A DNA stretch of 64,000 bases from Candidatus Collierbacteria bacterium GW2011_GWA2_42_17. GTDB taxonomy: Bacteria; Patescibacteriota; Microgenomatia; UBA1400; MFAQ01. A program made the position numbers and the translations under genes. Position 1 is the stretch's first letter; every line of letters begins with the position of its first letter. Below the pieces are notes generated by a model. That model did not search any database. It was not told the origin of the DNA and saw only the letters and a list, made by a program, of their open reading frames with translations. The stretch is taken from the NCBI GenBank assembly GCA_000998275.1, contig LCDA01000003.1, positions 1,596-65,595 on the forward strand, given 5' to 3'. Positions 2,264 to 17,104 of this stretch are shown in pieces.

Positions 2264-2303
2264 TGGTAAGATGAGTTATTAAATAAAACAATTTAAACTA
2301 AAA

Positions 2304-2456
2304 TGGCAAAAACTAAAATGATTGTAAAAGAGGATCAAATCCTCGTAGATGTGGAAACTATCTTCAAAGAAATTGAGGCGGCTGGTGGTGACTGGAAGAA
2401 AGTTTGGGAGGAGTTCAAAAGCTATCTAAAAGACGTCAAAGGCGAGGGTAAGTAAG
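2304..2456 (+). CDS. Small hypothetical protein (50 aa)
   Basis: ORF MAKTKMIVKEDQILVDVETIFKEIEAAGGDWKKVWEEFKSYLKDVKGEGK, too short for the ORF track. No obvious SD. Protein-like composition. Confidence 0.25.
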
Positions 2457-2462
2457 TCTTTC

Positions 2463-2708
2463 CTATTCCGGTTGGTAGCCAAGATTAGTGATGACCTTCT
2501 TGATGGAGTTGAGATCTGTTTTTTCCGGATCAAAAGTAATTTTGGCTACGGATTTTTGGTAGCTAGTGTCGGATGAAGAAACCCCCGGTGTATCCTCGAG
2601 AGCGAGATCAATGTTGGCGGCACAGGAGGTGCAGTGGAGACCAGAAAGTTTTAGAGTAGTAGTTTGGAGGTGATCATTTTTGGTTTTGGATTTAAGAAAA
2701 TTGAACAT
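2463..2708 (-). CDS. HMA-domain metallochaperone (CopZ-like, CxxC variant GLHCTSC)
   Basis: 81 aa. LSGLHCTSCAANIDLAL carries the CxxC of the heavy-metal-associated ferredoxin-like fold. It lies 9 bp downstream of the DsbD_2-like gene on the same strand. Confidence 0.75.
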   Translation of the reverse strand: MFNFLKSKTKNDHLQTTTLKLSGLHCTSCAANIDLALEDTPGVSSSDTSYQKSVAKITFDPEKTDLNSIKKVITNLGYQPE

Positions 2709-2717
2709 AAGTATTGA

Positions 2718-3740
2718 TTAATTAATAATATTGAAACGGCCGGTGTACATACCCATGGAGCAGGAGAAGACAAGAGCACCGAGTTTTTTGGGGGTGAACT
2801 CGATGATGGTTTCTCCGGTTTCGGGGAGAAGTTTTTGAATGTTTAAGGCAGGGATAGTGAAGGAACGAGAGCAAGACTGAACATTGATAGTCCTAAGAGT
2901 GAGGCGGACAGGAATGTCTTTTTTTAGGGTAAGGGAGTTAGGAGAGTAACCACTATTGTTGACGGTGATAGAGATGTTTTGAATACCGTTTTTAACTGAA
3001 ACATTGGTATCGTCGGTACTCGCTGAAAGAACCGAAGGGTTGACGGCAGCTCGATAGAAGTTCTGGATGGTGTAAACAGAACCAGTTAAACCGACGCCGT
3101 TGTTTACGGAGTAAATGGACATACCGATAAGGGCGGCAGCGGCAATTTGGGGAAAATACTTTTGAAAAGCTTTGGCACCGGAGCTAAGGAGGAAACCAAA
3201 AAGCAGGAAGGTAGGCGAGGTGCCTACAATAAAGGCAAACATAATAGCGGCGCCGTATAAAGGATTGCCGGTACCAATGGCGATAACCTCAGTAGCCTGG
3301 GTGACAGCGCAAGGAAGAAAGACTGTTGATAAACCCAGAAGAAAAGGAGCAAAAAGAGACTGACTTTGAGACTCATTTTTGGCCAGACGGACTAGAAATT
3401 TGGGGGGTTTGATGACGAAGTAACGGAAAAGGGGGTGGAGGTTAAGAAGGTTACCGGCGATACCCAAAAGATAAATGCCGATGATGATCTGAATCCAACC
3501 TCGAGTGATAGGAGAAAGGACGAGGGTTTGGCCGAGAGCACCAAGAAGGAAGCCGAGGAGAGTATGAATTAAGAGTTTACCGGTGAGGAAGGAGACGATG
3601 GGGAGGGCCTTGTTGGTTTTGATCAGACTGTTTTCCTGATGGGCGATTACCGAAGTAAGAAGTCCTCCCTGGATGGCAAGGCAGGTGAGTCCGCCGGTAG
3701 TTAAGCCGGTGAGGAAGATGAAGAAGAGATTAGTGTTCAT
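2718..3740 (-). CDS. DsbD_2-like polytopic membrane protein fused to a C-terminal cupredoxin-like domain
   Basis: Multiple TM helices with an LPC motif (FLPCAVTQATE) and GNPLYGAAIMFAF, as in the second family member at 5153-6691. The C-terminal roughly 100 aa (PNSLTLKKDIPVRLTLRTINVQSC...FSCSMGMYTGRFNI) is a cupredoxin-like beta-sandwich signature. Start set at the internal ATG (MNTNLFF). Confidence 0.65.
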   Translation of the reverse strand: MNTNLFFIFLTGLTTGGLTCLAIQGGLLTSVIAHQENSLIKTNKALPIVSFLTGKLLIHTLLGFLLGALGQTLVLSPITRGWIQIIIGIYLLGIAGNLLNLHPLFRYFVIKPPKFLVRLAKNESQSQSLFAPFLLGLSTVFLPCAVTQATEVIAIGTGNPLYGAAIMFAFIVGTSPTFLLFGFLLSSGAKAFQKYFPQIAAAALIGMSIYSVNNGVGLTGSVYTIQNFYRAAVNPSVLSASTDDTNVSVKNGIQNISITVNNSGYSPNSLTLKKDIPVRLTLRTINVQSCSRSFTIPALNIQKLLPETGETIIEFTPKKLGALVFSCSMGMYTGRFNIIN

Positions 3741-3773
3741 AAATCGGTATTTATTACTATACCAGCTTTGCGT

Positions 3774-3788
3774 GCTACAATACGTAGT
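3774..3788. promoter_or_regulatory. Candidate BlaI/CopY-type operator (GCTAC-N5-GTAGT) abutting the repressor start codon
   Basis: gctacaatacgtagt, with GTAGTAT directly before ATG 3791. Related to the dyads at 5138-5152 and 13316-13330. Confidence 0.4.
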
Positions 3789-3790
3789 AT

Positions 3791-4165
3791 ATGGAATCAA
3801 AATTGTTTGGTTGCTTGGAACAACAGATTATAGATGTTCTTTGGCAAGAAAAGAAACCCTTAAAGCCATTGGATGTCTTGAAACAGCTTAAAGGGGATTA
3901 TGCCTACACGACAGTGATGACGGTTTTGAAGAGAATGTCAGATAAAAAGGTATTAACCAGAGAAATGGTTGGTAAAGCATATGTCTACTCTCCAGTTTCG
4001 AACAAAGAGGTCTATATTAAGAAGAGCTTGAAAAACCTGTATGGTAATTTGATGGATACTTATGGCGAACTTGCGATATCTCAGTTCGTAGACATGGTAA
4101 AAAACGACCGAGAGGATATGAACCTTCTTAAACGGTTTATTGATTCTTCCAAAAAAGCTAAATGA
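3791..4165 (+). CDS. BlaI/MecI/CopY-family winged-helix transcriptional repressor
   Basis: LEQQIIDVLWQEKKPLKPLDVLKQL...YAYTTVMTVLKRMSDKKVL matches the penicillinase-repressor family N-terminal wHTH. There is no C-terminal CxC...CxC copper motif. ATGA overlap with the next gene. Confidence 0.85.
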   Translation: MESKLFGCLEQQIIDVLWQEKKPLKPLDVLKQLKGDYAYTTVMTVLKRMSDKKVLTREMVGKAYVYSPVSNKEVYIKKSLKNLYGNLMDTYGELAISQFVDMVKNDREDMNLLKRFIDSSKKAK

Positions 4166-5109
4166 ATTATAGAAAGTTAAATTCTTTTTCTAATCTTTTT
4201 TTCGTGTTTTTGGTGTTTGTGGGTTTGATTTATACGGTGTTCCTTTTTAAATTATTTTTGGATACGTCTCCCGGGTTGGTGATGTTGTTGATTTTTTTGA
4301 TGGATGCGATTCGGTATGGATACAGTATGGTTTCGATCCAGTCTTTGGGTGTACTACTTGTCTCTTCCCTGATTAGTATTACCACTCAAGTTCTGATATA
4401 CAGATACATCAAAGCGTTGTTGATGACATTAAAGATTGTGGGTGGCACCCGTCATTTTACGAAGAGTCTCGAACTGGTTTCAATAAAGGATAAAATAGTT
4501 ACCTTTAGTTCCAGTTCTATCAGAGCTTTCACTTCTGGACTGTTACATCCAAGAATTCATCTCCCTAAAAACCTTAAGGAAACGAATTCTAGTCTGGAAG
4601 TAAAAGCGATAATGCTCCACGAGAAACAACACACTTTGGCTTTCGATCCGTTTAAGAGCTGGGTCGTTGGTGGAATTAAGGAGATATTACCGGGATTTCC
4701 TTTCAAAAAATGGATATTTGGACACTATGATGTCTTGGTGGAGTTAACGGCCGATGCATACGCCGAAAAAATATTAAACAAAAGACTGCCAATAATTTCT
4801 GCCTTATATAAACAGTATGAAGGCAGCGGCAAAAATATTATTCCAGCGGTCGGTTTTTCGAATAGCCAATCAGAAAGGATTCATATCTTGGTGGGGAAGG
4901 AACGAGTCAAAATAAAAGGACCTTTGGTGGTATCGTCTGTTGTGGTAATGACATTATTTGTTGGTACATTGCTGACGAGGAACAAAGACTTATTTTATAG
5001 CTGCCCACACTTAGATTCGTGTATTTTAAATGTCATTGCCCAAAAAACAAGTAACTTTGGGGTGTCGGAAATAGAAGCCGCCCAGTCAGTATTAGGTAGC
5101 CATCAATGA
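4162..5109 (+). CDS. BlaR1/MecR1-like M56 family membrane metallopeptidase (signal transducer without a penicillin-binding sensor domain)
   Basis: N-terminal TM helices, then AFTSGLLHPRIHLPKNL and the zinc motif HEKQH (HExxH) typical of M56. Translationally coupled to the BlaI-like gene. Confidence 0.8.
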   Translation: MNYRKLNSFSNLFFVFLVFVGLIYTVFLFKLFLDTSPGLVMLLIFLMDAIRYGYSMVSIQSLGVLLVSSLISITTQVLIYRYIKALLMTLKIVGGTRHFTKSLELVSIKDKIVTFSSSSIRAFTSGLLHPRIHLPKNLKETNSSLEVKAIMLHEKQHTLAFDPFKSWVVGGIKEILPGFPFKKWIFGHYDVLVELTADAYAEKILNKRLPIISALYKQYEGSGKNIIPAVGFSNSQSERIHILVGKERVKIKGPLVVSSVVVMTLFVGTLLTRNKDLFYSCPHLDSCILNVIAQKTSNFGVSEIEAAQSVLGSHQ

Positions 5110-5134
5110 ACTTCTCCTTGACAATTAATGAAAA

Positions 5135-5155
5135 CATACTACACTATGTAGTATG
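5135..5155. promoter_or_regulatory. Perfect 9/3/9 palindrome operator CATACTACA-cta-TGTAGTATG overlapping the start codon; TTGACA -35 at 5118-5123
   Basis: The palindrome is read directly. Its right arm ends in ATG 5153. Core ACTAC-N5-GTAGT. The -35-like TTGACA lies 30 nt upstream of the ATG, suggesting a leaderless or very short leader. Confidence 0.55.
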
Positions 5156-6691
5156 TTGAATTATAATCAGGAGCGGACAGGCTTAAAATTTTATATAAGG
5201 GGGATGCACTGTGCTTCTTGCGAGATGATTATTGAGAAGAAGTTGCGCAAAGAAAAGGGAGTTTTGCTGGTTGAGGTTGACTTGAATAAAGGATTGGTGG
5301 AGATAGCAACATCTGGAAATAGCCATCTTTCGGAAGATTATCTAAATTATCTTTTTAAAGATGACGGCTATACCTTTTTTAGTAAACCGATCGATAAATC
5401 GATACAGGTCAAGGGAAAAACCGAGTGCGAAACTGCCTGCGAGAATAAGCCCAGCGGAGAAATAAACTACACGCCTTATATGATAGCGGCCTTGTTTTTG
5501 GCTGGTTTTTATATCTTGCAAAAAACAGGCTTTGCTTCATTGGTTTCCGTTAATTCCCAGTCCTCACTACCGGTATTTTTCTTGTTTGGCATACTGGCCG
5601 GACTATCAAGCTGTGCGGCTTTGGTGGGAGGAATCATTCTTTCGTTAAGTAAACAATGGCTGTCTATTTATGATAAAAATGATTCTTCGCTAAAAAAATC
5701 CGAACCGCATATTCTTTTTAACGTCGGTCGGGTTTTGGGATACGGAGTTTTTGGGGGTTTGTTGGGGTTTTTGGGAAATGTATTTAGAGTTTCCCCGGCT
5801 TTTTCGGCATCTTTAGTAATTGGGGTTTCGATTTTGATGATACTTCTTGGTTTGCAAATGCTTGGAGTTAAGGCTTTAGCTAAGTACCAGCTACGCTTCC
5901 CAAAATCTATCACTGGTAAATTTTCTAACGAAGAAAACTTTCAGGGTAGGTTTGGGCCATTTTTGATGGGAGCACTTACTTTCTTTCTACCTTGTGGATT
6001 CACAATCACTGTTCAGGCGCTGGCCCTAGCTTCGGGAAATCCGCTACAAGGAGCTTTGATAATGGCGGTTTTTGCCTTAGGTACAATTCCCGGTTTGTTG
6101 GTGATTGGACTGAGTAGTGTGAAACTATTTAGTAATCCCGAAATAGCGAAACAATTTTCGATTGTGGCAGGAATCTTGGTTCTATTTTTTGCCGCTTTTA
6201 ATATTAACGCTCAGATGTCCGTCTTGGGATTATCAAATATTAGTGATGTCTTGGCGGCGACAACTTCGGCGGGATCTTCGGATAAAAGCCGCGACACTTC
6301 CTTGGTGCCTGTCGTGTCCGGAAAACAAATTATCAAGATGAATGCCTCGTCAAGAAGTTATACCCCGAACCGATTTAAGATTAAAGTCGGTCAGCCGGTA
6401 CGATTGGAGGTTACTGATGTGGGAACGAGCGGCTGTACCAATGCCATAATTTCTAAACTGTGGAATGGTCAAATATCATTAACTCAGGGTAAGACATCCG
6501 TAAAAGAGTTTACTCCCTCAAAGGTGGGTCTTTATAAATTTTCTTGCTGGATGGGTATGGTTTCCGGAACAATTGAAGTGGTTGACGGAACGGGTTCTTC
6601 AGGGACAACGACAAGTACCAAACCAATCGAGTCCGGCGCCAAAGGATGCGGTTGTGGTGGGGGTAGTGGTTCCTGCGGAGGTTCTAAGTAA
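5153..6691 (+). CDS. HMA domain + DsbD_2-like membrane domain + cupredoxin-like domain fusion protein with a Cys/Gly-rich C-terminal tail
   Basis: N-terminal GMHCASCE (HMA), polytopic core with FFLPCGFTITVQALALASGNPLQGALIMAVFALG, C-terminal PNRFKIKVGQPVRLEVTDVGTSGC...FSCWMGMVSGTIEV cupredoxin-like module, and a GCGCGGGSGSCGGSK tail. Confidence 0.7.
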   Translation: MLNYNQERTGLKFYIRGMHCASCEMIIEKKLRKEKGVLLVEVDLNKGLVEIATSGNSHLSEDYLNYLFKDDGYTFFSKPIDKSIQVKGKTECETACENKPSGEINYTPYMIAALFLAGFYILQKTGFASLVSVNSQSSLPVFFLFGILAGLSSCAALVGGIILSLSKQWLSIYDKNDSSLKKSEPHILFNVGRVLGYGVFGGLLGFLGNVFRVSPAFSASLVIGVSILMILLGLQMLGVKALAKYQLRFPKSITGKFSNEENFQGRFGPFLMGALTFFLPCGFTITVQALALASGNPLQGALIMAVFALGTIPGLLVIGLSSVKLFSNPEIAKQFSIVAGILVLFFAAFNINAQMSVLGLSNISDVLAATTSAGSSDKSRDTSLVPVVSGKQIIKMNASSRSYTPNRFKIKVGQPVRLEVTDVGTSGCTNAIISKLWNGQISLTQGKTSVKEFTPSKVGLYKFSCWMGMVSGTIEVVDGTGSSGTTTSTKPIESGAKGCGCGGGSGSCGGSK

Positions 6692-6709
6692 TTACAAATT
6701 ATAAAAAAT

Positions 6710-6928
6710 ATGAAGATAAACAATCTTTCCTTTCTAATAAATGACATGCACTGTAAATCATGTATTAAAATAATTGAAGCTACCCTTTCAGAGATCCCGG
6801 GTGTAAAAATAACCGACTCGGATTTTAAGAAAAAAACTGTAAGTATTACTTACAACATTGATACGACGACCCCGGAAATATTAATAAATACCATAAAAGA
6901 AATCGGTTATAAAGCTGAGATCGTCTAA
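6710..6928 (+). CDS. copZ: Copper chaperone CopZ (HMA domain)
   Basis: 72 aa with [14 protein letters not shown] (CxxC) and a ferredoxin-like HMA layout, immediately upstream of the Cu-ATPase. Confidence 0.85.
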
Positions 6929-6933
6929 AACTT

Positions 6934-9315
6934 ATGAGCGTCACCAACAATGAGGTAAAAGACAGCACTTCCCAGGTAGCCTATCTGGAAATTTCCGGTA
7001 TGCATTGCAGTAGTTGTGCGAGTCTGATTGAAAGGTCTCTTACAAAAACAAAGGGAGTTCAGGAGGCAAATGTTAATTTTGCGACGAGTAAAGCCAGAGT
7101 CAAGTTTGATACAAAACTGGCAACTTTGAAAAACCTCAAGGAAGCCGTTAAATCCGCCGGTTACAGAGCGGAGGTTCCTTCAGAAACAAGTTCCAAGTCG
7201 GAAACCGAAAAAAGATCGCTCGAAATTAAGTATTGGTTTACCAAGTTTATTGCCGGCTTGGTGTTAAGTTTACCGATGCTGTTCTTTATGGTGTATGACT
7301 TTGTCCCCAATCTTCCCTTCGCCAGAACAATCATGCCTATCTCCGGATTGATTTCTTTAATTCTTGCCACGCCGGTTCAGTTCTGGGTCGGTAATAACTT
7401 TATTCAAGGGGCGATCTCTGCCTTTAAGATGAAAACCTTTAGCATGGATTCGCTAATTGCCATTGGTACACTGACGGCCTTTGTTTATAGTACCTTTGAG
7501 TATGTAGCGTACATTGTGAATACCGGCTCAGTTTTTGGTTTAGATGGAATGAAAATAGGGAATCTATATTATGAAGTAGCGTCTCTTTTGATTACGTTTG
7601 TGGCTTTGGGAAAATGGCTCGAAGCTAAAGCTAAAGGAAAGACTTCACAGGCAATCGAAAAACTGGTCGGGTTGGCACCGAAAACGGCCAGAGTAATGAG
7701 AGATGGTTCTCCGGTTGACCTTCCCGTTGGAGAGGTGATTGTCGGAGACATTGTCGTTGTTCGTCCAGGAGAGCGAATTCCCGTGGATGGAGTAATTGTT
7801 TCAGGGTCGAGCTCGGTAGATGAGTCAGCTCTTACCGGAGAGTCGATTCCCGTAGAAAAAGTGGTTGGAGCGAAAGTGTTTACAGCGACGATTAATAAAA
7901 CCGGAAGTTTTGAGTTTGAGGTACAAAAAGTGGGTGATGATACAGTATTGTCGCAGATAGTTAAATTGATTGAGGATGCTCAAGGAACCAAGGCTCCAAT
8001 TCAAGGATTTGCCGACAAAATATCTTCGATTTTTGTGCCTACAGTTATCGTGATAGCGATACTGACTTTCCTACTTTGGTACTTTATTCTGGGAGCCTCC
8101 TTTGAGTTTGCTATTTTGGCCTTTGTCTCGGTAATTGTGATTGCCTGTCCGTGTGCTTTGGGACTTGCTACCCCTACTGCGATCATGGTGGCGACAGGTA
8201 AGGGTGCCGAACAAGGAATCCTGATTAAGGGTGGAGAGCCATTGGAAACTGCCTGCAAGATTGAGACTATTGTTTTCGACAAAACAGGGACACTCACTAA
8301 AGGCCAACCGGAAGTGACGGATATCGTGAACTACTCAGACAAATCGGAGCAGGAAATACTAGCGATTCTTTATGCTTTGGAGTCAAAATCCGAGCACCCC
8401 TTGGCGGCGGCCATTGTTGATTACTGCAAGAGTCGAGTTTCGACAAAAGACAGGCAGACTGCAACGGCGGACTTTAAAGCAGTTCCTGGTCATGGAGTTG
8501 AGGGCAAGATTAACGGAAAAACGTATTTTGTGGGTAATCGCCGCTTGATGGAGTTGAAGAATATTCACTCATACTCACTTGTGGATTTGGAGAAACTGGA
8601 AGAGGGTGGTAAAACGGCGATGCTAATTGCTTCGACGAAAAAAGTATTGGGTATCGTAGCCGTGGCTGATCGAGTGAAAGAAACAACGGCCAAGGTAGTA
8701 AAAAAACTGCAGGATCAGGGAATTGAAGTTTATATGATCACCGGCGACAACCAGAGGACGGCCAACGCGATTGCTAAACAAGTTGGCATTACCAAGGTAC
8801 TGGCTGAAGTACTGCCACAGAATAAGGCGGAGGAGGTCAAGAAGTTACAAGCACAGGGAAAGATTGTGGCCATGGTAGGGGACGGTATTAACGACTCTCC
8901 GGCATTAGTTCAATCCGACCTGGGAATTGTGATGGCATCTGGTGCCGACGTGGCTTTGGAGTCCGGAAGTATCATCATTATGAATAATGATCTGGAAGGG
9001 ATACTAACAGCGATCAAATTGAGTAAAGAGACGGTTGGAAAGATTAAACAAAATATGTTTTTTGCTCTCTTTTACAATGTTTTGGGTATCCCGGTAGCGG
9101 CTCGAGCTTTTGTCTCGTTTGGTTTGGTTCTTAAACCAGAACTGGCCGGACTAGCGATGGCTTTGTCTTCGGTCTCGGTGGTAAGCAACTCATTACTACT
9201 TAAAGGATTTAATCCAAAACGGTTTAATCTCATTTCCCGTCTGGCTCCCATTGTAATGACCGTGGGTTTCCTTTTTATCTTTTGGCAGTTTGCTTCTGTC
9301 TCATCAATGAAGTGA
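6934..9315 (+). CDS. copA: Copper-translocating P1B-type ATPase
   Basis: N-terminal HMA (GMHCSSCAS), TM4 [17 protein letters not shown] phosphorylation site, [10 protein letters not shown] hinge, TM5 YN and TM6 MALSS Cu(I) signature. Confidence 0.95.
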
Positions 9316-9327
9316 GACGGGAGATCG

Positions 9328-10443
9328 TTATCTAATTGATTTGTAACCGCCAAGAACTCCTCTTTTGGACAAGACGATTTGCCAGAGCTGAATATTCCTG
9401 GATCTAAACGATCCGGCAGAGGAGAGGAGATAGTATCGCCACATGCGATAAAATTTTTCGTCGTAGTTTGATCTTATTAACTTCCAGTTTTTTTCAAAAT
9501 TACTATGCCAAGCCATTAATGTCTTGTCGTAATTAACTCCGAGATTATGCCAGTCTTCCATGACAAATAGTCCTTCTATGGACTGACCTAACTGTTTAAT
9601 CGAGGGCAGCATAGAGTTGGGAAAGATATATTTACCGGTCCAGGGATCAGTTCCCGTCACTGAGATGTTGCCACCAATGGTGTGGAGCAAAAACAAACCA
9701 TCATCCTTAAGGACTTTGTGGGCGACTTTCATAAAAGTTCGATAATTTTTGTAGCCTACGTGTTCAATCATGCCGAGAGACACGATGTGGTCATAGCTAC
9801 CTTTGATATCACGGTAATCTTGAAGCAGAGTTTCAACAGGAAGACCTTTGTAAAGTGAGTCGGCAAGTATTTTCTGTTCTTTAGAGACAGTGATCCCTTT
9901 GGTTTTTGCACCATATTTTTCGGCAGCGAAACCAAGAAAACTACCCCAACCGGAACCAATGTCTAGGACTCTTTGTCCAGGTTTAAGACTAATCTTCCGA
10001 CAAATGAGGTCTAGCTTGGCTTCTTGGGCGTCATCAAGATTGGTGGAGTTTTCCCAGTATCCGCAGGTATAGGTGAGGCGTTTGTCTAGCATGGCCCGAT
10101 ACAAGTCATTGCCGATGTCGTAGTGTTTACGGCCAATTTCAAAAGCTTTTGATTTTCTACCCGCATTTAAGACGACGTTTAAAGTGAGTCTGGCGGCTAG
10201 GGCTAGATTATTTTTGACCTTACGGTCCAGACTAGCAGAAAGAATCTTGTCAAAAAACTGGTCGAGTTTTTTACAGTCCCACCAACCGTCCATGTAGGCT
10301 TCGCCAAGACCCAGTGATCCATGTTTGAGTACTCGTCCATAAAAATCTTCGTTGTGTATTTGGGGGTCGTACGGACGACTACCATTTATGGTGACACCTG
10401 TTCCGGAAAGCAATGCTTTGATAATCGCTTTATCCTTGGTCAT
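9328..10443 (-). CDS. cfa: Cyclopropane-fatty-acyl-phospholipid synthase family SAM-dependent methyltransferase
   Basis: VLDIGSGWGSFLGFAAEKYGAKTKGITVSKEQ (motif I), HVGYKNYRTF, and a length of about 370 aa typical of CFA synthases. Confidence 0.85.
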   Translation of the reverse strand: MTKDKAIIKALLSGTGVTINGSRPYDPQIHNEDFYGRVLKHGSLGLGEAYMDGWWDCKKLDQFFDKILSASLDRKVKNNLALAARLTLNVVLNAGRKSKAFEIGRKHYDIGNDLYRAMLDKRLTYTCGYWENSTNLDDAQEAKLDLICRKISLKPGQRVLDIGSGWGSFLGFAAEKYGAKTKGITVSKEQKILADSLYKGLPVETLLQDYRDIKGSYDHIVSLGMIEHVGYKNYRTFMKVAHKVLKDDGLFLLHTIGGNISVTGTDPWTGKYIFPNSMLPSIKQLGQSIEGLFVMEDWHNLGVNYDKTLMAWHSNFEKNWKLIRSNYDEKFYRMWRYYLLSSAGSFRSRNIQLWQIVLSKRGVLGGYKSIR

Positions 10444-10496
10444 ATGCTTTTATGATACGCCAAGTGAAAGATTTTTCACAGTTTTTAATTTAATAT

Positions 10497-10694
10497 TTAG
10501 TGACAATTTTTTTTGGAATTATCACCACTATTATCATGGCTCATGTTTTTCATCATAAAGATATGCATAACCGGACAGATGAGAAAAATACCATATGGTA
10601 GCAGAATATTCCAGGGAACTTTGAGGACATAGACAACAATAAAAGAGAGAGTAACTAAGACAAGAGATATTTTAAAGGTATTGTTTATTTTCAT
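10497..10694 (-). CDS. Small membrane protein, DUF2933-like (CP.MH..MM motif)
   Basis: Taken from the internal Met MKINNTFK... It has one TM plus LICPVMHIFMMKNMSHD, resembling the metal-island-associated DUF2933 signature. Start is uncertain. Confidence 0.4.
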   Translation of the reverse strand: MKINNTFKISLVLVTLSFIVVYVLKVPWNILLPYGIFLICPVMHIFMMKNMSHDNSGDNSKKNCH

Positions 10695-10696
10695 GT

Positions 10697-11008
10697 TCAA
10701 GGTAAAAGAGGTCCGCCGTTGTATCCCGGTATCCACCAGGGAATAAATAAATAAACGATAAAGATGTAGCTTGTGATTGAATAGATGGCGACAAGCAAAA
10801 GTGCTTTTAACAGGCCCGTTTTTTGTCTGCGGAGTTGCCACCAAGCAAGAAATAACAGGAGCAAACTAGGAATTAATAAATATTTATTTTGGCTCTCATT
10901 GGTGAGTTTCAATAAATATCCCGAGCTGATGAGGAAGATGAGAATACCGCCACAACAAATGAAGTGAATTATGATGAAGGGAATTGCGCCTCCAATTAAT
11001 TTTTTCAT
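10697..11008 (-). CDS. MerT-like small membrane protein with a vicinal Cys pair in TM1
   Basis: 103 aa, three predicted TMs. IHFICCGGILIFL recalls the MerT CC motif. Lies within the metal island. Confidence 0.4.
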   Translation of the reverse strand: MKKLIGGAIPFIIIHFICCGGILIFLISSGYLLKLTNESQNKYLLIPSLLLLFLAWWQLRRQKTGLLKALLLVAIYSITSYIFIVYLFIPWWIPGYNGGPLLP

Positions 11009-11035
11009 GGTTGTGGCAGCACTTGGATATTTTAT

Positions 11036-11980
11036 TTAAACTCCACAACCGCCACCGCCCTGCTTGGGTGGTTGTTCAATGATGCCTTCACTGCTTAGCC
11101 ATTGCTTGGCTGCCTGCCAGCCGGAGGATGAAGAGAACTCTCGACCAAGGAGTGTTTTGGCATCGATGTCGGCGAAGTTTTTACTTTCTTTATTTTTGAA
11201 ATACAAGGCTAGGTCATAGTAGTTACCTGGGAACCAAAAAGCGCTGAAATATTTACCTGCCTCGTACATTTCTTTTTCACTGGCTCCGTTTGAGGCCATT
11301 AACTCTAAGACAGCGAGTAAGGCCATGCCATGATTACAGTCGGGGAAAGCGGTAGAGTTGTTGCAGCAAGGACGGAAAATATTTGAAGCAACTTCTTTTA
11401 CCAGTTTCTCTTGTGCCGGGGTGAGTTTGATGAAGTTTGCTTTGGAGTAGTATTTCATGGCATCACCTTTTGCCAGAGTCCAACCACCGGTAGAAGCAAA
11501 TCTAGCGGCACCTTTAAGCCCGCCGTCTTTTACCATGTCTCCCGCGTCCAAGATGGATGATTTGTTGGACAACCCAAGTGCCCAGAAGAAGTTCAGGAGA
11601 AATTTGCTGTTTAATGAGGTAATTTTTACAGGAGTGTTGCTACCTTTGGTGAGGATATCAAGCTGTTCCTGATCGAGGTCTTGTCCGGAAGCACTGTATG
11701 CCGCTTTAAATTTTTCCAAGTCGATAACACCGAGAGCGATCATTTTTGGACCCAGATCACCAAAAGCGGCGTTTATTTCATATCCTTGATCAGGATTGAC
11801 CTCTTCAAGGGAGACAGTTTCCCCTTTGTTTGTTTGACTCTGTGTGGTTTGTTCTTGGTTGGCGGTTCCGCCACTATTAATTTTCACAATATAGAAGCCT
11901 TGGCCTATATTCACTCCAAAACTGGCGAGTAAAAGTAGGGGAATAACTTTACTTCGGAAATTAGTCGTCTTTTCTTTCAT
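11036..11980 (-). CDS. Secreted hypothetical protein with Cys-rich segment and GGGGCGV C-terminus
   Basis: Signal peptide (VIPLLLLASFGVNIG), RPCCNNSTAFPDCNHGMA cluster, C-terminal QPPKQGGGGCGV. Overlaps the upstream gene by 20 nt, consistent with an operon. Confidence 0.55.
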   Translation of the reverse strand: MKEKTTNFRSKVIPLLLLASFGVNIGQGFYIVKINSGGTANQEQTTQSQTNKGETVSLEEVNPDQGYEINAAFGDLGPKMIALGVIDLEKFKAAYSASGQDLDQEQLDILTKGSNTPVKITSLNSKFLLNFFWALGLSNKSSILDAGDMVKDGGLKGAARFASTGGWTLAKGDAMKYYSKANFIKLTPAQEKLVKEVASNIFRPCCNNSTAFPDCNHGMALLAVLELMASNGASEKEMYEAGKYFSAFWFPGNYYDLALYFKNKESKNFADIDAKTLLGREFSSSSGWQAAKQWLSSEGIIEQPPKQGGGGCGV

Positions 11981-12800
11981 AGTTTTTAAATTTAATAATT
12001 AATTTATAAAATAAAAATAAGATGAGGGAAAAAACTAAGAGATCGACAATTCGATTTTGGAAATACTTTGATATATTAAAGACGATATTCCTGATCACTT
12101 GACCATAGACATCTTTTTCTGAACTCATTTGGATTTTGTCGAAGTAGTTTAAAATCGTAATGGTGATGCCGGACAAGAAAAAAATGCCTACTCCAAGAAA
12201 CTGGAATATTTTGTATATTTTGGCTCTATTTTTGCCGATGAGGCCGGTCACCTTTGAGTAAGACATGGAGATGAGCATGAGAGGAAACACGATTCCCAGC
12301 ACATAAGCGATAGAGACTAGTAGGGCTTGGAACATAGTGGGTGAGAGAGAGGTCAGTGTAACCGCGGCAAAAAGAACCGGGGCGCAACAGGCTGAGGTGA
12401 GGCCGGACATCAAACCGAGAACGAACACCGACCAAGTGTTGGTTTTTTGACCAACCCGGGGGTTGACATGGAAAATTTGGGGGAGATGAAATACAGGCCA
12501 GATGGTCATTAGCCCCATAAATACCATAAAGGCGCCACCTAAGTAGTAGACTTCTTTGTGGTAAGCATCCAAAAAGAAAATGAAAAAGCGGAAACCTAAG
12601 GATATCGGAATAAGAATGAAGGAGAGACCCAAAGCAAAAAGCAGGGTATAGAGCAGAACCCTTTTGCGATCTTTGAAGATAGTACCGAAGTAAGAAGGCA
12701 AGAGAAAGGTAATGCAGCAGGGGGCAAAGAGAGCCAAGACTCCGGCGATGAAAGAAGCGGTGAGAGAGACTCCCAGGAAAAGATTTGGATCTAAGTTCAT
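11961..12800 (-). CDS. CcdA/DsbD-family-like polytopic membrane protein with two CC motifs
   Basis: About 7 TM helices. FAPCCITF in TM1 and TSACCAPVLF in a later TM. Resembles cytochrome-c-biogenesis CcdA / thiol:disulfide or metal transfer proteins. Confidence 0.6.
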   Translation of the reverse strand: MNLDPNLFLGVSLTASFIAGVLALFAPCCITFLLPSYFGTIFKDRKRVLLYTLLFALGLSFILIPISLGFRFFIFFLDAYHKEVYYLGGAFMVFMGLMTIWPVFHLPQIFHVNPRVGQKTNTWSVFVLGLMSGLTSACCAPVLFAAVTLTSLSPTMFQALLVSIAYVLGIVFPLMLISMSYSKVTGLIGKNRAKIYKIFQFLGVGIFFLSGITITILNYFDKIQMSSEKDVYGQVIRNIVFNISKYFQNRIVDLLVFSLILFLFYKLIIKFKNYERKDD

Positions 12801-13315
12801 TTGGTAATGTTGGCTTTCATTCTTAATATGATCTTTGAGAAATCGGGGTCGTTGGTGTCGATGTATACCTCACGGATGATGACACCATAAACCGGCATGG
12901 TGAAGGGGCGATAGATGACTCTAATGGTTGCTTCAGCTCCAGGAGCTATGTTGACTACCTCGAGAGATCGCTTGCTCATACCATATTCTTTGGTTTCTTG
13001 GTCTCCGCTAATTATTTTGGCTGAGGTACAACCGCAACTGGAATTAATATTTCTAAGCTGAAGTGTTTTTTCACCAATATTTTTGACAATAAAGTCTCTC
13101 GTAATGGTGTCTTTTAATTTCGAGATTCCCGTGTCGACAAAGTTTTCGGGTAATTCAACTTTGGGTTTTTGGGTATCTGTCTGGGTGTAAGAGGTGGTAG
13201 GGGAGCTTGAGGTTTTTTTACTGAGGAGACTGATGGCAAACAGCGAAAGTATCGCTACTAAAGCTGTGCCGAAGACGATCATAATGATTGTTTTGATGCT
13301 GGTAGTATTCAACAT
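12797..13315 (-). CDS. DUF1573-family membrane-anchored protein (SCGCT motif)
   Basis: N-terminal TM, then an Ig-like region with NINSSCGCTSAKI, characteristic of DUF1573. Start is probably the ATG at 13315 (the track's longer ORF starts at an alternative codon at 13351). Confidence 0.55.
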   Translation of the reverse strand: MLNTTSIKTIIMIVFGTALVAILSLFAISLLSKKTSSSPTTSYTQTDTQKPKVELPENFVDTGISKLKDTITRDFIVKNIGEKTLQLRNINSSCGCTSAKIISGDQETKEYGMSKRSLEVVNIAPGAEATIRVIYRPFTMPVYGVIIREVYIDTNDPDFSKIILRMKANITK

Positions 13316-13333
13316 ACTACCTAGTGTAGTAGA
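13313..13333. promoter_or_regulatory. Second ACTAC-N5-GTAGT dyad operator in the divergent promoter region; -10 TATAAT at 13340-13345
   Basis: catACTACctagtGTAGTag. On the minus strand this reads CTACTACA-ctag-GTAGTATG, ending in the ATG of the DUF1573 gene. A perfect TATAAT sits 9 nt before ATG 13354. Confidence 0.5.
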
Positions 13334-13353
13334 ATATTTTATAATAGTCAACT

Positions 13354-13806
13354 ATGAAAATATTAGCCGTCTTTCTTACCATTGCAGTTATCGTCGTTGG
13401 TGTCGTGATATTCAAATCATCACGAGCGAAACCATTGATTGTTTACGATGATCAAGAAATAACCAGATACGTGGCTCCGACAATAGAGCCACGAGTCGAG
13501 CCGAAACCCACTTCGACATCAAGTCAAAAAGCAGTTCAAGTGATTAGAGCCACTTACAATATTGAGGATGGTCTTAGCCCAAGCCGATTTAAAGTGAAAG
13601 CCGGTGTTCCGGTTAGACTGGAAGTTAAGGCCATTGTTGATGGTCTGGGTTGTATGGGAAGTATTACAATTCCTGAGCTAACGGATGAGGTTTATGGATT
13701 TGAGAAGGATGTAACTAATGTATTCGAAGTAACACCACCCTCTCCAGGAGAGTACGTGATTACCTGTGCTATGGGAATTCCACACGGAGTAATTATTGCC
13801 GAGTAA
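13354..13806 (+). CDS. Membrane-anchored cupredoxin-like domain protein
   Basis: N-terminal TM, then SPSRFKVKAGVPVRLEVKAIVDGLGCMGSITIPEL...GEYVITCAMGIPHGVII. Same module as the C-termini of the two DsbD_2 fusions. Confidence 0.6.
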   Translation: MKILAVFLTIAVIVVGVVIFKSSRAKPLIVYDDQEITRYVAPTIEPRVEPKPTSTSSQKAVQVIRATYNIEDGLSPSRFKVKAGVPVRLEVKAIVDGLGCMGSITIPELTDEVYGFEKDVTNVFEVTPPSPGEYVITCAMGIPHGVIIAE

Positions 13807-14287
13807 CAAAGTTTTTACGGACGCTGGTGATCATTTGTTTGACACACCATTGGGCATACATATATCCAAAAAGGAAGCCAAGTAGTCGAGCTGCTCCTCT
13901 GGGTAACTCGTAGTCGATAAAGACAACCAATCGAGACCCTTTCTCTTGAGGTGTAATTTCAAAACCCATGCGGTAATTGCCAATCACATAAAGTTTGGGG
14001 TAGGCAACCGTTTCCCATGATTTTAATTTGGGTGGTTCGTGTTGGGTGACCACTTCGTCGAGATAGATGTTTAGTCCAAAAGCTTTGCCTTTGAGCTGAA
14101 TATGAGAACCAACTTTTTGACCTAAATCATTGTCAATTTCAGTGACCATACTGCCTCCTCCCATCATCAGGGAAGACCGTCCCATGTGAGACGAAAGATT
14201 GGCGTGGTTGTCAACAAAAGAAAAGAGCGCTTGGGGGGAGGCGGAGACGATTAAAGATTCAGCATAATGGTAGGGTAGTTTAAACAT
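13793..14287 (-). CDS. SRPBCC (START/polyketide-cyclase-like) superfamily protein
   Basis: 164 aa. Spacing of hydrophobic beta-strands and a C-terminal helix (ARLLGFLFGYMYAQWCVKQM) is consistent with Polyketide_cyc2-like folds. Confidence 0.5.
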   Translation of the reverse strand: MFKLPYHYAESLIVSASPQALFSFVDNHANLSSHMGRSSLMMGGGSMVTEIDNDLGQKVGSHIQLKGKAFGLNIYLDEVVTQHEPPKLKSWETVAYPKLYVIGNYRMGFEITPQEKGSRLVVFIDYELPRGAARLLGFLFGYMYAQWCVKQMITSVRKNFVTRQ

Positions 14288-14299
14288 ATTATTGATCGT

Positions 14300-16552
14300 T
14301 TATGAAATAAGATCTTTTTCAACCCTTTTAAGTAAGACGGCGTTGACGGCGACGATAATTGATGAGATAGACATGAGCAAGGCAGAAAATTCAGGACGAA
14401 GAGTAATGCCAAATCGTGGGTAAAGTACTCCGGCGGCAATGGGGATGGCCAGTAGGTTGTAAACACTAGCCCAAGCCAGGTTTTCTTTCATCTTTCTGAC
14501 GGTAGCCTTACTTAATTTTATGGCTCTAAGAATATCAAGGGGGTCTGATTTCATCAAAACAACATTGGCCGTTTCGATAGCGACGTCTGTGCCAGCACCA
14601 ATGGCGATACCAATGTTGGACTGGGCCAAGGCCGGCGCGTCGTTGACGCCGTCACCAACCATGGCGACAAATTTCCCCTCATCTTGGAGTTTTTTGACAT
14701 ACCGAGCTTTGTCTCCTGGAAGAACATCGGCGAAAATGCGGTCTATTCCCAGCTGTTTTCCGATGGTTTCGGCGGTTTTACTGTTGTCTCCGGTAATCAT
14801 AGCGATTTCGAGACCGAGATGCTTCATTCGTTCGACGGCGACTTTGGCGGTTGGCTTAATGGGATCTTGGGCGGCAGCCACTCCAGCAATTTTTCCATCA
14901 ACTGCTAAGATCATGATTGTTTTTCCTTCCGAAAGTAATCTATCGATATCCAATTTAAGGGGAGAAATGTCTACCTTTCGATCAGACATGAGCTTAATCG
15001 TCCCGACCAAGATGTGTTTTTGAGAAACAATTGCTTCCACTCCATGGCCGGCAATGGAATTAAATTTTTCAATTTTTTCCGGGAACTTAAGACCACGTTT
15101 TTTTGTTTCTTCCAGGATGGCTTTGCTTAAGGGGTGGCCGGACTTTGCTTCTACGGCGCTGTCTAGTATAAGGATTTCATCAGACTTAAAACCCTCGGCG
15201 GCAAGGACATCGGTAATTTTTGGTTTTCCTTCCGTAAGGGTTCCTGTTTTGTCCATGACTATCGTTTGAATCTTGGAGACCTGTTCCAAGGTAGGGGCGT
15301 CTTTAATCAAAATATTATATTTGGCACCCAAGCCGGTACCAACGGCGACGGCAGTTGGAGTGGCAAGACCAAGAGCGTCCGGACAGGCGATGACTACCGT
15401 GGAGATGGCGAAGGTGAGAGCGACCAACAAGGGCTGACCGATGATAAAGAACCAAATAATAAAGGTAAGGAGACCGCCGCCAACGGCTACGACGACCAGA
15501 TATTGAGCAAAGCGGTCAGCTATTTTTTGACCTGGAGCTTTGGAGTTTTGGGCTGTTTCGACCATTTTGACAATCTGCCCCAGAGCAGTGTCGGCGCCAA
15601 TTTTGGTAGCTTTAAACTTGACGGAACCGGAGGTGTTGATAGAACCGCCGATAACTTCCGCACCAATGGTTTTGGATACCGGTATAGATTCTCCCGTAAC
15701 CAAGGATTCGTCGATTGCTGTTTGACCTTCGGTAATTACGCCATCGACAGGCACTTTGTCTCCCGGTTTTAGAATAATAGTGTCACCGACAAGAACTTCA
15801 GCGGTAGAGACGAGTACTTCTTTACCATGACGGAGTACTCTTGTTTGGGGTGGTACCAGATCGAAAAGAGCTTGAAGGGCATCGGTAGTGCCTCTTCTGG
15901 ACTTCATTTCCATCCAGTGACCAAAAAGGACAAAGGTGGTGAGCATGGCAGCCGCTTCGTAAAAAGACTCATTACTACCCAAGAGTGTTAAAGCAATACT
16001 AAAGAAGTAAGCAGCACTGATACCGACAGCGATCAACACGGCCATGTTGAGAGTTTTTTGTTTGAAAATGGCGATGTATGAAGAGTAGAGAAAAATCCAA
16101 CCACAGTAAAAATAAACAGGAGTTGTTAAGAGAAGAAGCAACCAGTTTACGGGGATAGGTGAAGGAAGACTCAGACCAAAGATATTGACGCCCATTTGAG
16201 AGTAGAGGACGATGGGAATGGTGAGAATCAGAGAAACAAAAAATTTGTTTCTAATGTCTTCTTCCATCATTTTGGCCATTTCACGACCAGCGAGTCCAGT
16301 GTGATCCATACCCATAGCCATAGTCATACTCATCTTAAATTTTTCCCAGAAACCCATTTGGGCAACCGGTTTCATGGTATGGCCCTGATGGCTTTCATGT
16401 TTGTTGTCTGAAGAAGGGGTTTCGTGGTGTTCGTGATCACTATGTTTCATCTCTTGGGGAACAAGAGCCATTCCACACTTAGGACAGTTCCCCGGCTTGT
16501 CGGAGGTGACTTCGGGGTGCATAGGGCAGACGTAAGAAGGGGTCATGTTCAT
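14300..16552 (-). CDS. P1B-type heavy-metal ATPase with CPD TM4 motif, N-terminal CxxxxC...CPxCG metal-binding module, and His- and Met-rich linker
   Basis: YVCPMHPEVTSDKPGNCPKCGMAL (HMBD-type N-terminus), HSDHEHHETPSSDNKHESHQGH, MSMTMAMGMDH. TM4 reads IACPDALGLATP (checked on the DNA). DKTGTLT, GDGVNDAPAL, TM5 YN, TM6 MSISS. Start at ATG 16552 (MNMTPSY); the upstream extension in the track is unlikely to be coding. Confidence 0.9.
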   Translation of the reverse strand: MNMTPSYVCPMHPEVTSDKPGNCPKCGMALVPQEMKHSDHEHHETPSSDNKHESHQGHTMKPVAQMGFWEKFKMSMTMAMGMDHTGLAGREMAKMMEEDIRNKFFVSLILTIPIVLYSQMGVNIFGLSLPSPIPVNWLLLLLTTPVYFYCGWIFLYSSYIAIFKQKTLNMAVLIAVGISAAYFFSIALTLLGSNESFYEAAAMLTTFVLFGHWMEMKSRRGTTDALQALFDLVPPQTRVLRHGKEVLVSTAEVLVGDTIILKPGDKVPVDGVITEGQTAIDESLVTGESIPVSKTIGAEVIGGSINTSGSVKFKATKIGADTALGQIVKMVETAQNSKAPGQKIADRFAQYLVVVAVGGGLLTFIIWFFIIGQPLLVALTFAISTVVIACPDALGLATPTAVAVGTGLGAKYNILIKDAPTLEQVSKIQTIVMDKTGTLTEGKPKITDVLAAEGFKSDEILILDSAVEAKSGHPLSKAILEETKKRGLKFPEKIEKFNSIAGHGVEAIVSQKHILVGTIKLMSDRKVDISPLKLDIDRLLSEGKTIMILAVDGKIAGVAAAQDPIKPTAKVAVERMKHLGLEIAMITGDNSKTAETIGKQLGIDRIFADVLPGDKARYVKKLQDEGKFVAMVGDGVNDAPALAQSNIGIAIGAGTDVAIETANVVLMKSDPLDILRAIKLSKATVRKMKENLAWASVYNLLAIPIAAGVLYPRFGITLRPEFSALLMSISSIIVAVNAVLLKRVEKDLIS

Positions 16553-16624
16553 ACATTTAGTATAAGCATTTTTTTTGATAAATATTTTTTCGGCCTTGAT
16601 TTGGGAATGATGTAGAATCGAGTT

Positions 16625-17104
16625 ATGAACGAAAAAATAAAGCCAGTACCGACTGATTTTAATTCGGAAAAAATGGAGATTGTTATGAGGGCAAACGACG
16701 AAGGTCCACTGGGGGAGATAGAGAGTTGGAAGGAAGCTTTTCCGGAGGTTGAGTTTATGGATGTTGATGAAGCGTTTAGCGGTGACAAGATCGATTGGGA
16801 TCAAAGGACAGTAGTGGAGAAGGCGCTGTTTGTTGCTTTTATGAAAGATCCTCAGTCGACAAGTGTTAGATATGAAATGAAGCTGGACAATATTTACCTG
16901 TCCAAGACAGTTACCGACTCCGAAAGAGTCTGGTGGATGTGGATGGCAGGCTGTTTTTCCGGTGGGGAGCTTGATGAAAAAGCAATAAAAACGTTTTTAT
17001 GGTATGTGGATGAGAGTATTTTAGCGAGACGATTTACCAGGGATATAGATCTGGAAAGGGTAAAAAACATCAAGTACAAAATAAAAGTGGCGCCTTTGGA
17101 ATAA
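16625..17104 (+). CDS. Hypothetical protein
   Basis: 159-aa ORF, acidic N-terminal half and W-rich segment (RVWWMWMAGCFSGG). No known motif. Confidence 0.45.
   Translation: MNEKIKPVPTDFNSEKMEIVMRANDEGPLGEIESWKEAFPEVEFMDVDEAFSGDKIDWDQRTVVEKALFVAFMKDPQSTSVRYEMKLDNIYLSKTVTDSERVWWMWMAGCFSGGELDEKAIKTFLWYVDESILARRFTRDIDLERVKNIKYKIKVAPLE

Follow-up and report, generated by a model that had tools for sequence, protein, structure and literature searches.

A very likely copper-defence island in Candidatus Collierbacteria, with DsbD_2-CupA fusion proteins and a candidate protease-switched repressor

Studies of the PetR/PetP pair of Synechocystis sp. PCC 6803 have tied the removal of a BlaI/CopY-family factor to copper: loss of PetR requires both PetP and copper, in living cells as well as in extracts (Garcia-Canas et al., PNAS 2021; bioRxiv 10.1101/2020.07.31.226407), and the PetR operator is GACA-N3-TGTC (bioRxiv 10.1101/2020.07.31.226407). 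A pair of similar make-up is found in Candidatus Collierbacteria bacterium GW2011_GWA2_42_17, within a 64-kb stretch of contig LCDA01000003.1 (positions 1,596 to 65,595) that we refer to as the window and whose numbering is used unless another locus is named. The pair lies in about 14 kb of metal genes, bounded by the gene for ribosomal protein S1 (1024-2229) and a conserved open reading frame (ORF) of 159 residues (16625-17104), together with copper ATPases and membrane proteins that join a DsbD_2 domain to a cupredoxin domain. We hold with high confidence that this locus is a copper-defence island, the metals handled being Cu(I) and probably also Ag(I). As the best explanation of the whole we favour, with moderate confidence, a protease-switched repressor combined with Cu(I) efflux and relay and an envelope thiol module.

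Compared through its published description, PetR/PetP resembles the Collierbacteria pair in several ways. Both consist of a BlaI/CopY-family factor without the cysteine site of CopY, whose gene overlaps that of the protease, and an M48/M56 protease of about 300 residues with four predicted transmembrane (TM) segments, a cytoplasmic HExxH motif and no penicillin-binding sensor. The operators share the geometry xACA-N3-TGTx, in this case TACA-N3-TGTA, and the signal is copper, here as a prediction. The targets differ, being plastocyanin and cytochrome c6 in Synechocystis and copper-efflux and envelope genes in the window; the host here is a non-photosynthetic bacterium of the candidate phyla radiation (CPR), and a Cys-x-His-x3-Cys tail stands in place of the Met pair proposed as the sensor of PetP. 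Given this precedent the regulatory idea is not a new one; in the literature searched, PetRP is reported from cyanobacteria only. The BlaI/BlaR1 and MecI/MecR1 pairs of Staphylococcus share the repressor fold, the Phe at the cleavage position, a zinc-protease motif in a cytoplasmic loop between TM segments and an autoregulated two-gene unit. They differ from the pair in the window in having a penicillin-binding sensor, a protease of about 585 instead of 315 residues, and beta-lactamase or PBP2a as targets.

The structural genes also have described counterparts. In the CopY-CupA-CopA system of Streptococcus pneumoniae (Fu et al. 2013; 4F2E, 4F2F), CupA is likewise membrane-attached and encoded beside a copper ATPase and a BlaI/CopY-fold repressor, but it is a cytoplasmic protein on a single N-terminal TM anchor, whereas the domain in the window is fused to a polytopic DsbD_2 protein and predicted to face outward. 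The CopA of the window has an ordinary HMA domain instead of a cupredoxin domain, and its repressor lacks a metal site. DsbD, CcdA and ScsB have the DsbD_2/DsbD_TM core in common with the fusions, TM1 and TM4 each bearing a Cys that looks essential, and DsbD-type proteins are linked to copper tolerance (Scs); the flanking domains in the window, however, are metal-binding (HMA and CupA-type) and not thioredoxin-like or Ig-like, with no evident thioredoxin partner. The MerP-MerT-MerA pathway offers a third likeness, with an HMA domain on one side of the membrane, TM Cys residues, a metal-binding domain on the other side and thiol ligand exchange, although its TM family is another one, its metal and direction are probably different and the locus has no mer genes. 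The parts thus have known relatives in PetRP, CupA, DsbD/CcdA and CopA. In the literature searched we found no description of their combination, of how broad the fusion family is, of a PetRP-type switch in charge of copper efflux, or of the Cys/His tail.

A preliminary description of this DNA, made from the letters alone, had singled out the locus as a metal island and named DsbD_2, cupredoxin and M56 as the domain assignments on which it would fall. Profile searches of the window's proteins against Pfam and NCBIfam bear out DsbD_2 and cupredoxin, and M56 with a match below the Pfam cut-off beside invariant motif residues; the same gene order was found again in other genomes, which excludes clustering by chance. 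Domain content, conserved residues, gene order and palindromes are observed directly.

Repressor, peptidase and operators

The repressor (124 residues; 3791-4165, plus strand) is a winged-helix protein of the BlaI/PetR type, with a Pfam Penicillinase_R match at E 8e-21. Its one Cys is not conserved and the CopY-type CxCx4CxC is absent from it, as from all nine locus repressors aligned, in keeping with the earlier claim of a BlaI/CopY-fold protein devoid of CopY's Cys site. Phe99 is invariant in the same alignment and presumably corresponds to Phe102 of the Asn101-Phe102 cleavage site in Staphylococcus aureus BlaI. The repressor stop codon overlaps the start codon of the peptidase gene (ATGA), as expected from the coupling of the two genes that had been proposed.

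The adjoining gene (4162-5109, plus strand) encodes a sensor-less, PetP-like putative membrane metallopeptidase of the M56/M48 type, 315 residues long (Peptidase_M56, E 1.5e-5). Its HEKQH (residues 153-157), E194 and D198 (in an Ala-Asp motif) do not vary even among homologues as distant as 21% identity, and PF05569 is listed in the precomputed Pfam column for the identical protein P0121 and for most homologues. The protein ends 43 residues after the last TM segment, and its match to the blaR1_generic model (25.4 bits against a cut-off of 400) covers residues 56-160 only. In a profile search of 1.8 billion representatives, made without genomic context, the number of relatives rose from 66 at E<=1e-30 to 881 at E<=1e-10 and to 4495 at E<=1e-3; the best 150 are all short and sensor-less. 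A narrower M56 alignment retrieved two Collierbacteria loci only in a scan of the genome collection, and a PDB sequence search with the M56 protein gave no useful match.

Where could the signal be received? The last TM segment is followed by a tail, FYSCPHLDSC...H, with the consensus F(Y/F)xCxH(L/I)xxC in relatives, usually with a terminal His or Cys in addition. Of the 66 closest relatives, 45 carry CxHx3C and 59 carry Cx5C. The topology of BlaR1, applied by homology, places this tail on the outer face of the membrane, which makes it the best candidate for a sensor of copper or of copper-driven thiol oxidation; we put this role forward as a plausible but tentative one.

The palindrome CTAC-N5-GTAG occurs three times in the 64 kb, against 0.28 expected, each time within about 40 nucleotides upstream of a start codon. 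The window is free of the classical cop/bla box, TACA-N2-TGTA; the centre of the operator here measures 3 nucleotides instead. A promoter scan showed that the palindromes overlap predicted -10/-35 boxes. Operator 1, CTACAATACGTAG (3775-3787), lies in the 50-bp divergent region, 4 nucleotides before the start codon of the repressor gene; a -10 box, TACAAT, that ends 9 nucleotides before this codon overlaps it. Operator 2, CTACACTATGTAG (5139-5151), overlaps the plus-strand promoter TTGACA-16-TACACT (5118-5151) and stands 2 nucleotides before the ATG of the DsbD_2 fusion gene (5153), itself 7 nucleotides after the -10 box. Operator 3, CTACCTAGTGTAG (13317-13329), lies between the DUF1573 operon and a CupA-like gene, with the minus-strand promoter TTGACT-17-TACACT (13317-13351) and a minus-strand ATG again 7 nucleotides after the -10 box. 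Such close spacing of -10 box and ATG suggests leaderless transcripts.

Related loci in other genomes were compared. These include the syntenic 841-kb contig (L001/L014), two Collierbacteria assemblies (L006/L007), a Shapirobacteria contig (L011) and the unrelated assembly GCA_900089805.1 (L008). Operator 1 is present upstream of the repressor gene in L001, L006, L009, L010, L011, L012 and L014, with at most two changes in the 5-nucleotide spacer; in L003 it is identical and lies about 90 nucleotides upstream of the called repressor start, which is probably N-terminally truncated. TTGAC together with the 18-nucleotide block ACTACACTATGTAGTATG is invariant in six genomes, with a variable spacer between them, and the M56 proteins of these genomes are 29-69% identical. 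Operator 3 is kept in L014. Other BlaI/M56 pairs use the same half-sites with another spacing, N4 in the paralogous pairs of L001, L006 and L014 and N8 in L008, and in each case such sites are placed ahead of the regulator gene as well as of the target operon. L012 has a third N5 site, ahead of a DsbA-like gene. Loci with CsoR carry CsoR-type boxes instead. We consider it likely that the BlaI-type protein represses three units through these palindromes.

Operator 2 (5139-5160) and the reverse complement of operator 3 (13310-13329) have 22 of 23 nucleotides in common, ACTACACTAnGTAGTATGTTGAA, a stretch that spans the start codon and the first two codons (Met-Leu-Asn) and gives the impression that a cassette of promoter, operator and start was duplicated. 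The paralogous second BlaI/M56 pairs lie at 15892-17224 in L001, at 15040-16354 in L006 and at 14914 and 16162 in L014; with CTAC-N4-GTAG, and in front of DsbA-like, YtkA and DUF302 genes, they suggest that one island holds two proteolytic switches insulated from each other.

Could the repressor sense the metal directly, as CopY does, or the M56 protein answer a non-metal envelope signal as part of a general stress regulon? The best NCBIfam match of the repressor is indeed CopY/TcrY (TIGR02698), but at 41.6 bits it is far below the cut-off of 122, and neither a CxCx4CxC nor a conserved Cys is there to hold a metal. A non-metal signal would suit the Cx5C of the tail, seen in most of its closest relatives, which could be a redox switch, and the regulon does have thiol-redox genes and possibly a cyclopropane-fatty-acid (CFA) synthase. 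Yet the genes under operator control, in the M56-linked contexts that were looked at closely, are the fusion, CopZ and CopA, or else the metal-island DsbA-like, YtkA and DUF302 genes beside the paralogous pairs, and PetP requires copper in vitro. We regard both forms of this alternative as improbable. Relief of repression through proteolysis by the M56 protein appears the more credible course, and we lean towards it. Proteolytic derepression had been proposed in the preliminary description; it would fit the missing Cys site, the invariant Phe99 and catalytic residues, the gene overlap and the conserved operators, and its support is comparative evidence and precedent.

DsbD_2-CupA fusions and copper ATPases

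The gene behind operator 2 (5153-6691, plus strand) encodes 512 residues that comprise an HMA domain (E 6e-9), an extra TM segment, a DsbD_2 domain of 6 TM segments (E 1e-31), a C-terminal CupA-type domain (Cupredoxin_1, E 1e-8) and a Gly/Cys tail; seven TM helices are predicted. A 340-residue paralogue (2718-3740, minus strand), 30% identical to it over the full length, has the 6-TM DsbD_2 domain (E 4e-28) and the C-terminal CupA-type domain (Cupredoxin_1, E 1e-11) and no HMA; its start is the ATG of MNTNLFF, the listed 360-residue ORF (2718-3800) having begun at an upstream TTG. With DsbD_2 scores of 99 and 111 bits against a cut-off of 24.9 for the two window proteins, Pfam confirms the two DsbD_2 proteins with a C-terminal cupredoxin, one with an N-terminal HMA, that had been recognized from the letters.

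A PDB sequence search with the 512-residue protein led to CupA of S. pneumoniae (2MRY/4F2E, E 9e-5) and to the cupredoxin metal-binding domain of the CopA of that species (4F2F). All four CupA ligands (Cys2Met2) are kept in the fusion family, without variation in the Met ligands at the low-affinity transfer site. By this homology the modules are CupA-type Cu(I) chaperone domains and not generic cupredoxins; the earlier term 'cupredoxin-like' was borne out by the Cupredoxin_1 match and missed this identity. CupA itself has been reported in only a few streptococci, and the Cys residues of its S1 site are reported to reduce Cu(II) in vitro (review PMC7558416). The paralogue retains the TM1 Cys, the LPC of TM4 and the C...CxMxM motif, its HMA being encoded by the adjoining gene for a stand-alone, CopZ-like protein of 81 residues (2463-2708, minus strand; GLHCTSC; Pfam HMA, E 6e-15) that amounts to a 'split' cytoplasmic partner. 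The same pair is found in the same orientation in L006/L007. A third protein, of 150 residues on a single TM anchor (13354-13806, plus strand), matches Cupredoxin_1 at 30.3 bits against a cut-off of 27, in agreement with the stand-alone anchored cupredoxin-like protein of the preliminary description; in its motif, C...CxMxIxH, the second Met is replaced and only C...CxM is kept.

The predicted cytoplasmic loops of the fusion, three in number, hold 12 Lys/Arg residues and the three predicted outside loops hold one, which would put the HMA domain on the inner face of the membrane and the CupA-like domain, together with its Gly/Cys tail, on the outer. Gly/Cys-rich tails are found both in the fusion (GCGCGGGSGSCGGSK, 6640-6691) and in a 314-residue protein of the DUF1573 operon (GGGGCGV, 11036-11060); they are nearly invariant within their families, and both proteins are predicted to be extracytoplasmic there. 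The HMA motif of the fusion, GMxCxxC, is of the metallochaperone type. Within the membrane, C154 (TM1) and C281 (TM4) are invariant in the family, and the model has helix breaks at both. As a further sign of a metal path, a Met/His 'ladder' in the membrane domain had been considered and was dropped, these residues being lost in the 340-residue paralogue.

We give an even chance to a function by analogy with Mer, in which the fusion would pass Cu(I) across the membrane by ligand exchange, to or from the outside domain. A Cu(I) relay is favoured because both flanking domains are dedicated Cu(I) binders, the cytoplasmic one being a chaperone-type HMA. In the main alternative, which we think less likely, the DsbD_2 domains are electron conduits in the style of DsbD, CcdA and ScsB, reducing the CupA-like domain and DsbA-like partners so that their Cys residues stay reduced to bind Cu(I), reduce Cu(II) or repair copper-oxidized envelope proteins. 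In E. coli and Salmonella, tolerance of copper relies on DsbC/DsbD and on ScsB/ScsC. The domains do belong to the DsbD/CcdA superfamily of Pfam, with one invariant Cys each in TM1 and TM4; DsbA- or thioredoxin-fold genes stand in the same operons or regulons in L001, L006, L008 and L012; and the Cu(II) reduction reported for CupA in vitro (PMC7558416) would suit such a role. Against an electron conduit, the cytoplasmic partner, fused or adjoining, is an HMA domain with GMxCxxC and not a thioredoxin, and invariant Met ligands at the transfer site suit copper trafficking better than a substrate that is purely redox.

The fusion gene lies directly upstream of a copper ATPase gene, with at most one small gene, usually CopZ, between them, in eight of the eight independent contexts examined: the window, L001/L014, L006/L007, L008, L011 and L012, which have BlaI and M56, and L004 (an actinobacterial contig) and L013, which have CsoR. 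With this order constant and either BlaI/M56 or CsoR upstream, the fusion appears as a core structural gene of cop operons for which the regulator is exchangeable. The order also bears on whether the fusions, instead of taking part in export, import copper or another soft metal, Hg(II) or Ag(I) for example, to be handled in the cytoplasm as in Mer. The architecture mirrors MerP/MerT, and the HMA domains match MerTP and MerT/CopZ fusion families below threshold; the gene, however, is always beside or co-transcribed with a copper exporter under CsoR or BlaI/M56, no MerA, MerR or MerB was found in the window or the related loci, and the window has no cuproenzyme in need of copper supply. Import is the reading to which we give least credence.

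The fusion family comprises at least 2383 protein clusters in Patescibacteria, Actinobacteria and others, under the annotation 'sulfite exporter TauE/SafE family protein'. No paper in the literature searched pairs DsbD_2 with cupredoxin, and PF13386 was not found there; within that literature the combination is undescribed, as had been suspected. Two relatives of the operon have further, uncharacterised accessory genes: in L008 an HMA-DsbA/thioredoxin fusion (9781-10770) follows the DsbD_2 fusion, and in the actinobacterial CsoR operon of L004 an FtrD-like membrane protein (7405-7983) precedes it.

Downstream of the fusion come a CopZ-type HMA chaperone of 72 residues (6710-6928, plus strand; Pfam HMA, E 3e-15) and a CopA-type P1B-1 Cu(I) ATPase with one N-terminal HMA (6934-9315, plus strand) and the hallmarks CPC (TM6) and MALSS (TM8). 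A second copper P1B ATPase (14300-16552, minus strand; listed ORF 14300-16804) has an HMBD zinc-ribbon, a His-rich N-terminus and MSISS, and a CPD in TM6 that replaces CPC/CPH and marks it as a variant subtype; CPD has been noted once, as a rare, novel P1B-3-like subtype (PMC5552934), and the CPD form is also present in a Woesebacteria contig (L015, 11068-13278). With 609 and 565 bits, both are above the cut-off of 397 set for TIGR01511, the copper-ATPase model of NCBIfam, so the two P1B ATPases of the preliminary description are secure. Its three HMA chaperones are not: of four HMA domains, two are stand-alone genes (2463-2708 and 6710-6928), one is part of the fusion and one of CopA.

The DUF1573 operon and the surrounding sequence

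From operator 3 a minus-strand run of six genes, with ends overlapping or nearly abutting, leads through DUF1573, CcdA-like, 314-residue, 103-residue CC, DUF2933 and CFA synthase genes. The DUF1573 protein (12797-13315) is Ig-like, with a CGC motif and 172 residues from the ATG of MLNTTS (Pfam DUF1573, E 1e-9), and matches the OS_HP2 (seleno)protein domain below threshold. The CcdA-like protein (11961-12800) has 6 TM segments, with PCC in TM1 and ACCAP in TM4, and scores 29.4 bits against the DsbD_TM cut-off of 27.1; the two CC motifs noted earlier are these. The anchored 314-residue protein (11036-11980), with an invariant RPCCNNSTAFPDCNHGMA and a C-terminal GGCG, has no Pfam model. It shows a partial, weak to moderate resemblance to the CcmH-like fold, and a PDB sequence search with it gave nothing useful; CPR bacteria are not expected to make c-type cytochromes. 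Its family is highly conserved and comprises at least 5982 clusters without annotation, the 120 best matches being about 60-80% identical to the window protein.

The trio of DUF1573, CcdA-like and 314-residue genes recurs in L014, L015 and L016, where its neighbours are ZIP, DUF5676/DUF2933, YtkA, ArsR-type, two-component and P-type ATPase genes. From motifs, fold match and genomic context we infer an envelope thiol-redox pathway tied to metal stress. The 103-residue membrane protein (10697-11008, minus strand) had been called MerT-like; it has a CC in its first hydrophobic segment, but no match in Pfam or NCBIfam at E<=0.01, and belongs to no known family. The small membrane protein of 65 residues that follows (10497-10694, minus strand; CPVMH and MM motifs) is a DUF2933 protein (E 3e-9), as had been read, together with DUF1573, from the letters. 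A frameshifted DUF5676-DUF2933 gene at 10497-11008 was considered and rejected, the sequence having two adjacent intact ORFs. The CFA synthase (9328-10443, minus strand; Pfam CMAS, E 4e-83), last in the run and absent from the syntenic L014, may be a passenger. Between the 150-residue CupA-like gene and the second ATPase lies a gene on the minus strand for an SRPBCC/polyketide-cyclase-like protein (13793-14287; Polyketide_cyc2 25.0 bits, below the cut-off of 27.4).

The island of L014 occupies the same chromosomal slot, with S1 to the left and the 159-residue ORF to the right, and its modules vary. Missing from it are the divergent genes for HMA and DsbD_2-CupA, the gene for CFA synthase and all of 13354-16552; in their place it has the second BlaI/M56 pair with DsbA-like, YtkA and DUF302 genes. 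In L003 the gene immediately upstream of the BlaI/M56 unit encodes a serine recombinase (8288-9604), and the island of L006 contains an IS200-type Y1 transposase (13301-13975). The modules of the island are probably mobile among CPR genomes.

Several listed ORF starts in the window are too long, the likelier coordinates being 2718-3740, 12797-13315, 10497-10694 and 14300-16552. Between the S1 gene and the island, a small ORF (2303-2455, plus strand) encodes 50 residues, MAKTKMIVKEDQILVDVETIFKEIEAAGGDWKKVWEEFKSYLKDV..., that match no family; the protein is conserved in L014 (8518-8649). No tRNA or Rfam family was found in the 64 kb. The GC skew is strongly positive throughout the window, up to 0.40 per 2 kb, lower in the island (0.07-0.16) and about zero at 32-34 kb, where G+C falls to 0.32 over radical-SAM/SPASM and methyltransferase genes. 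Large ORFs of 1229, 841, 527 and 418 residues have no Pfam match.

A model for the island and its significance

Together, these observations point to a model for the island. Repressor binding and cleavage, the nature of the signal, and transport with its direction are what we infer in it. Without signal, the BlaI/PetR-type repressor would sit on the three CTAC-N5-GTAG palindromes that overlap promoter hexamers and so hold down three units: the one behind its own promoter, in a region that also serves the divergent HMA and DsbD_2-CupA genes; the fusion-copZ-copA operon; and the minus-strand operon of DUF1573, CcdA-like, 314-residue, CC and DUF2933 proteins, perhaps with CFA synthase. The co-translated M56 peptidase would detect extracellular copper, or thiol oxidation caused by copper, likely via its Cys-x-His-x3-Cys tail, and cleave the repressor in the cytoplasm near Gln98/Phe99, as in BlaR1/BlaI and PetP/PetR, so that the three units would be derepressed. 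CopZ, CopA and the CPD-type ATPase would then pump Cu(I) out. In the fusion, Cu(I) could move by ligand exchange, as in MerP-MerT-MerA, among the cytoplasmic GMxCxxC, the Cys residues of TM1 and TM4 and the outside Cys2Met2 site. The DUF1573, CcdA-like and CcmH-like trio would most likely feed reducing power to the envelope and undo the damage of copper to thiols.

Several observations sit uneasily with this model. It is not obvious what would drive passive Cu(I) export against a load of copper outside. Met and His residues that the 512-residue family conserves in its membrane domain are not kept in the 340-residue paralogue, which weakens the case for a metal pathway. DsbA-like genes recur in the same regulons, which suits an electron relay as well as a metal relay and makes the former a serious rival. 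On the side of the switch, the peptidase scores 24.8 bits with Pfam M56, below the cut-off of 31, so that of the BlaR1-like M56 protein proposed earlier the invariant HExxH and the absence of a penicillin sensor stand, and the family score falls short. The TM2-TM3 loop, DAIRYGYSMVSIQS, has a single, non-conserved Met and lacks the Met pair proposed for PetP, whose sensing mechanism is therefore not simply transferable. No CTAC-N5-GTAG palindrome was found upstream of the second ATPase. Finally, the -10 boxes coincide with the palindromes, and conservation of the latter is possibly in part conservation of promoters.

The broadest proposal that could be drawn from the locus is a speculative one: that the fusions are widespread, ATP-independent 'cysteine ladder' Cu(I) transporters, in which two Cys residues within the membrane link the chaperone domain inside to the CupA-type site outside, and that in Microgenomates a PetP-like protease with a copper-sensing Cys/His tail governs them and ties copper efflux to an envelope thiol-repair trio not recognized before. 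Current models of copper handling in monoderms consist of CopY or CsoR, CopZ and CopA; the fusion adds a third structural gene, present in several phyla and not discussed in the literature found. The CupA-type site is then not a streptococcal oddity but a widespread module, predicted to face outward. Proteolytic copper sensing may be older and broader than the cyanobacterial case, with a PetR/PetP-type switch governing copper efflux, and the Cys/His tail would offer a concrete candidate, open to mutation, for a sensor not yet defined in PetP. The operator and promoter sequences, in turn, allow reporter and footprint work without culturing the CPR organism.

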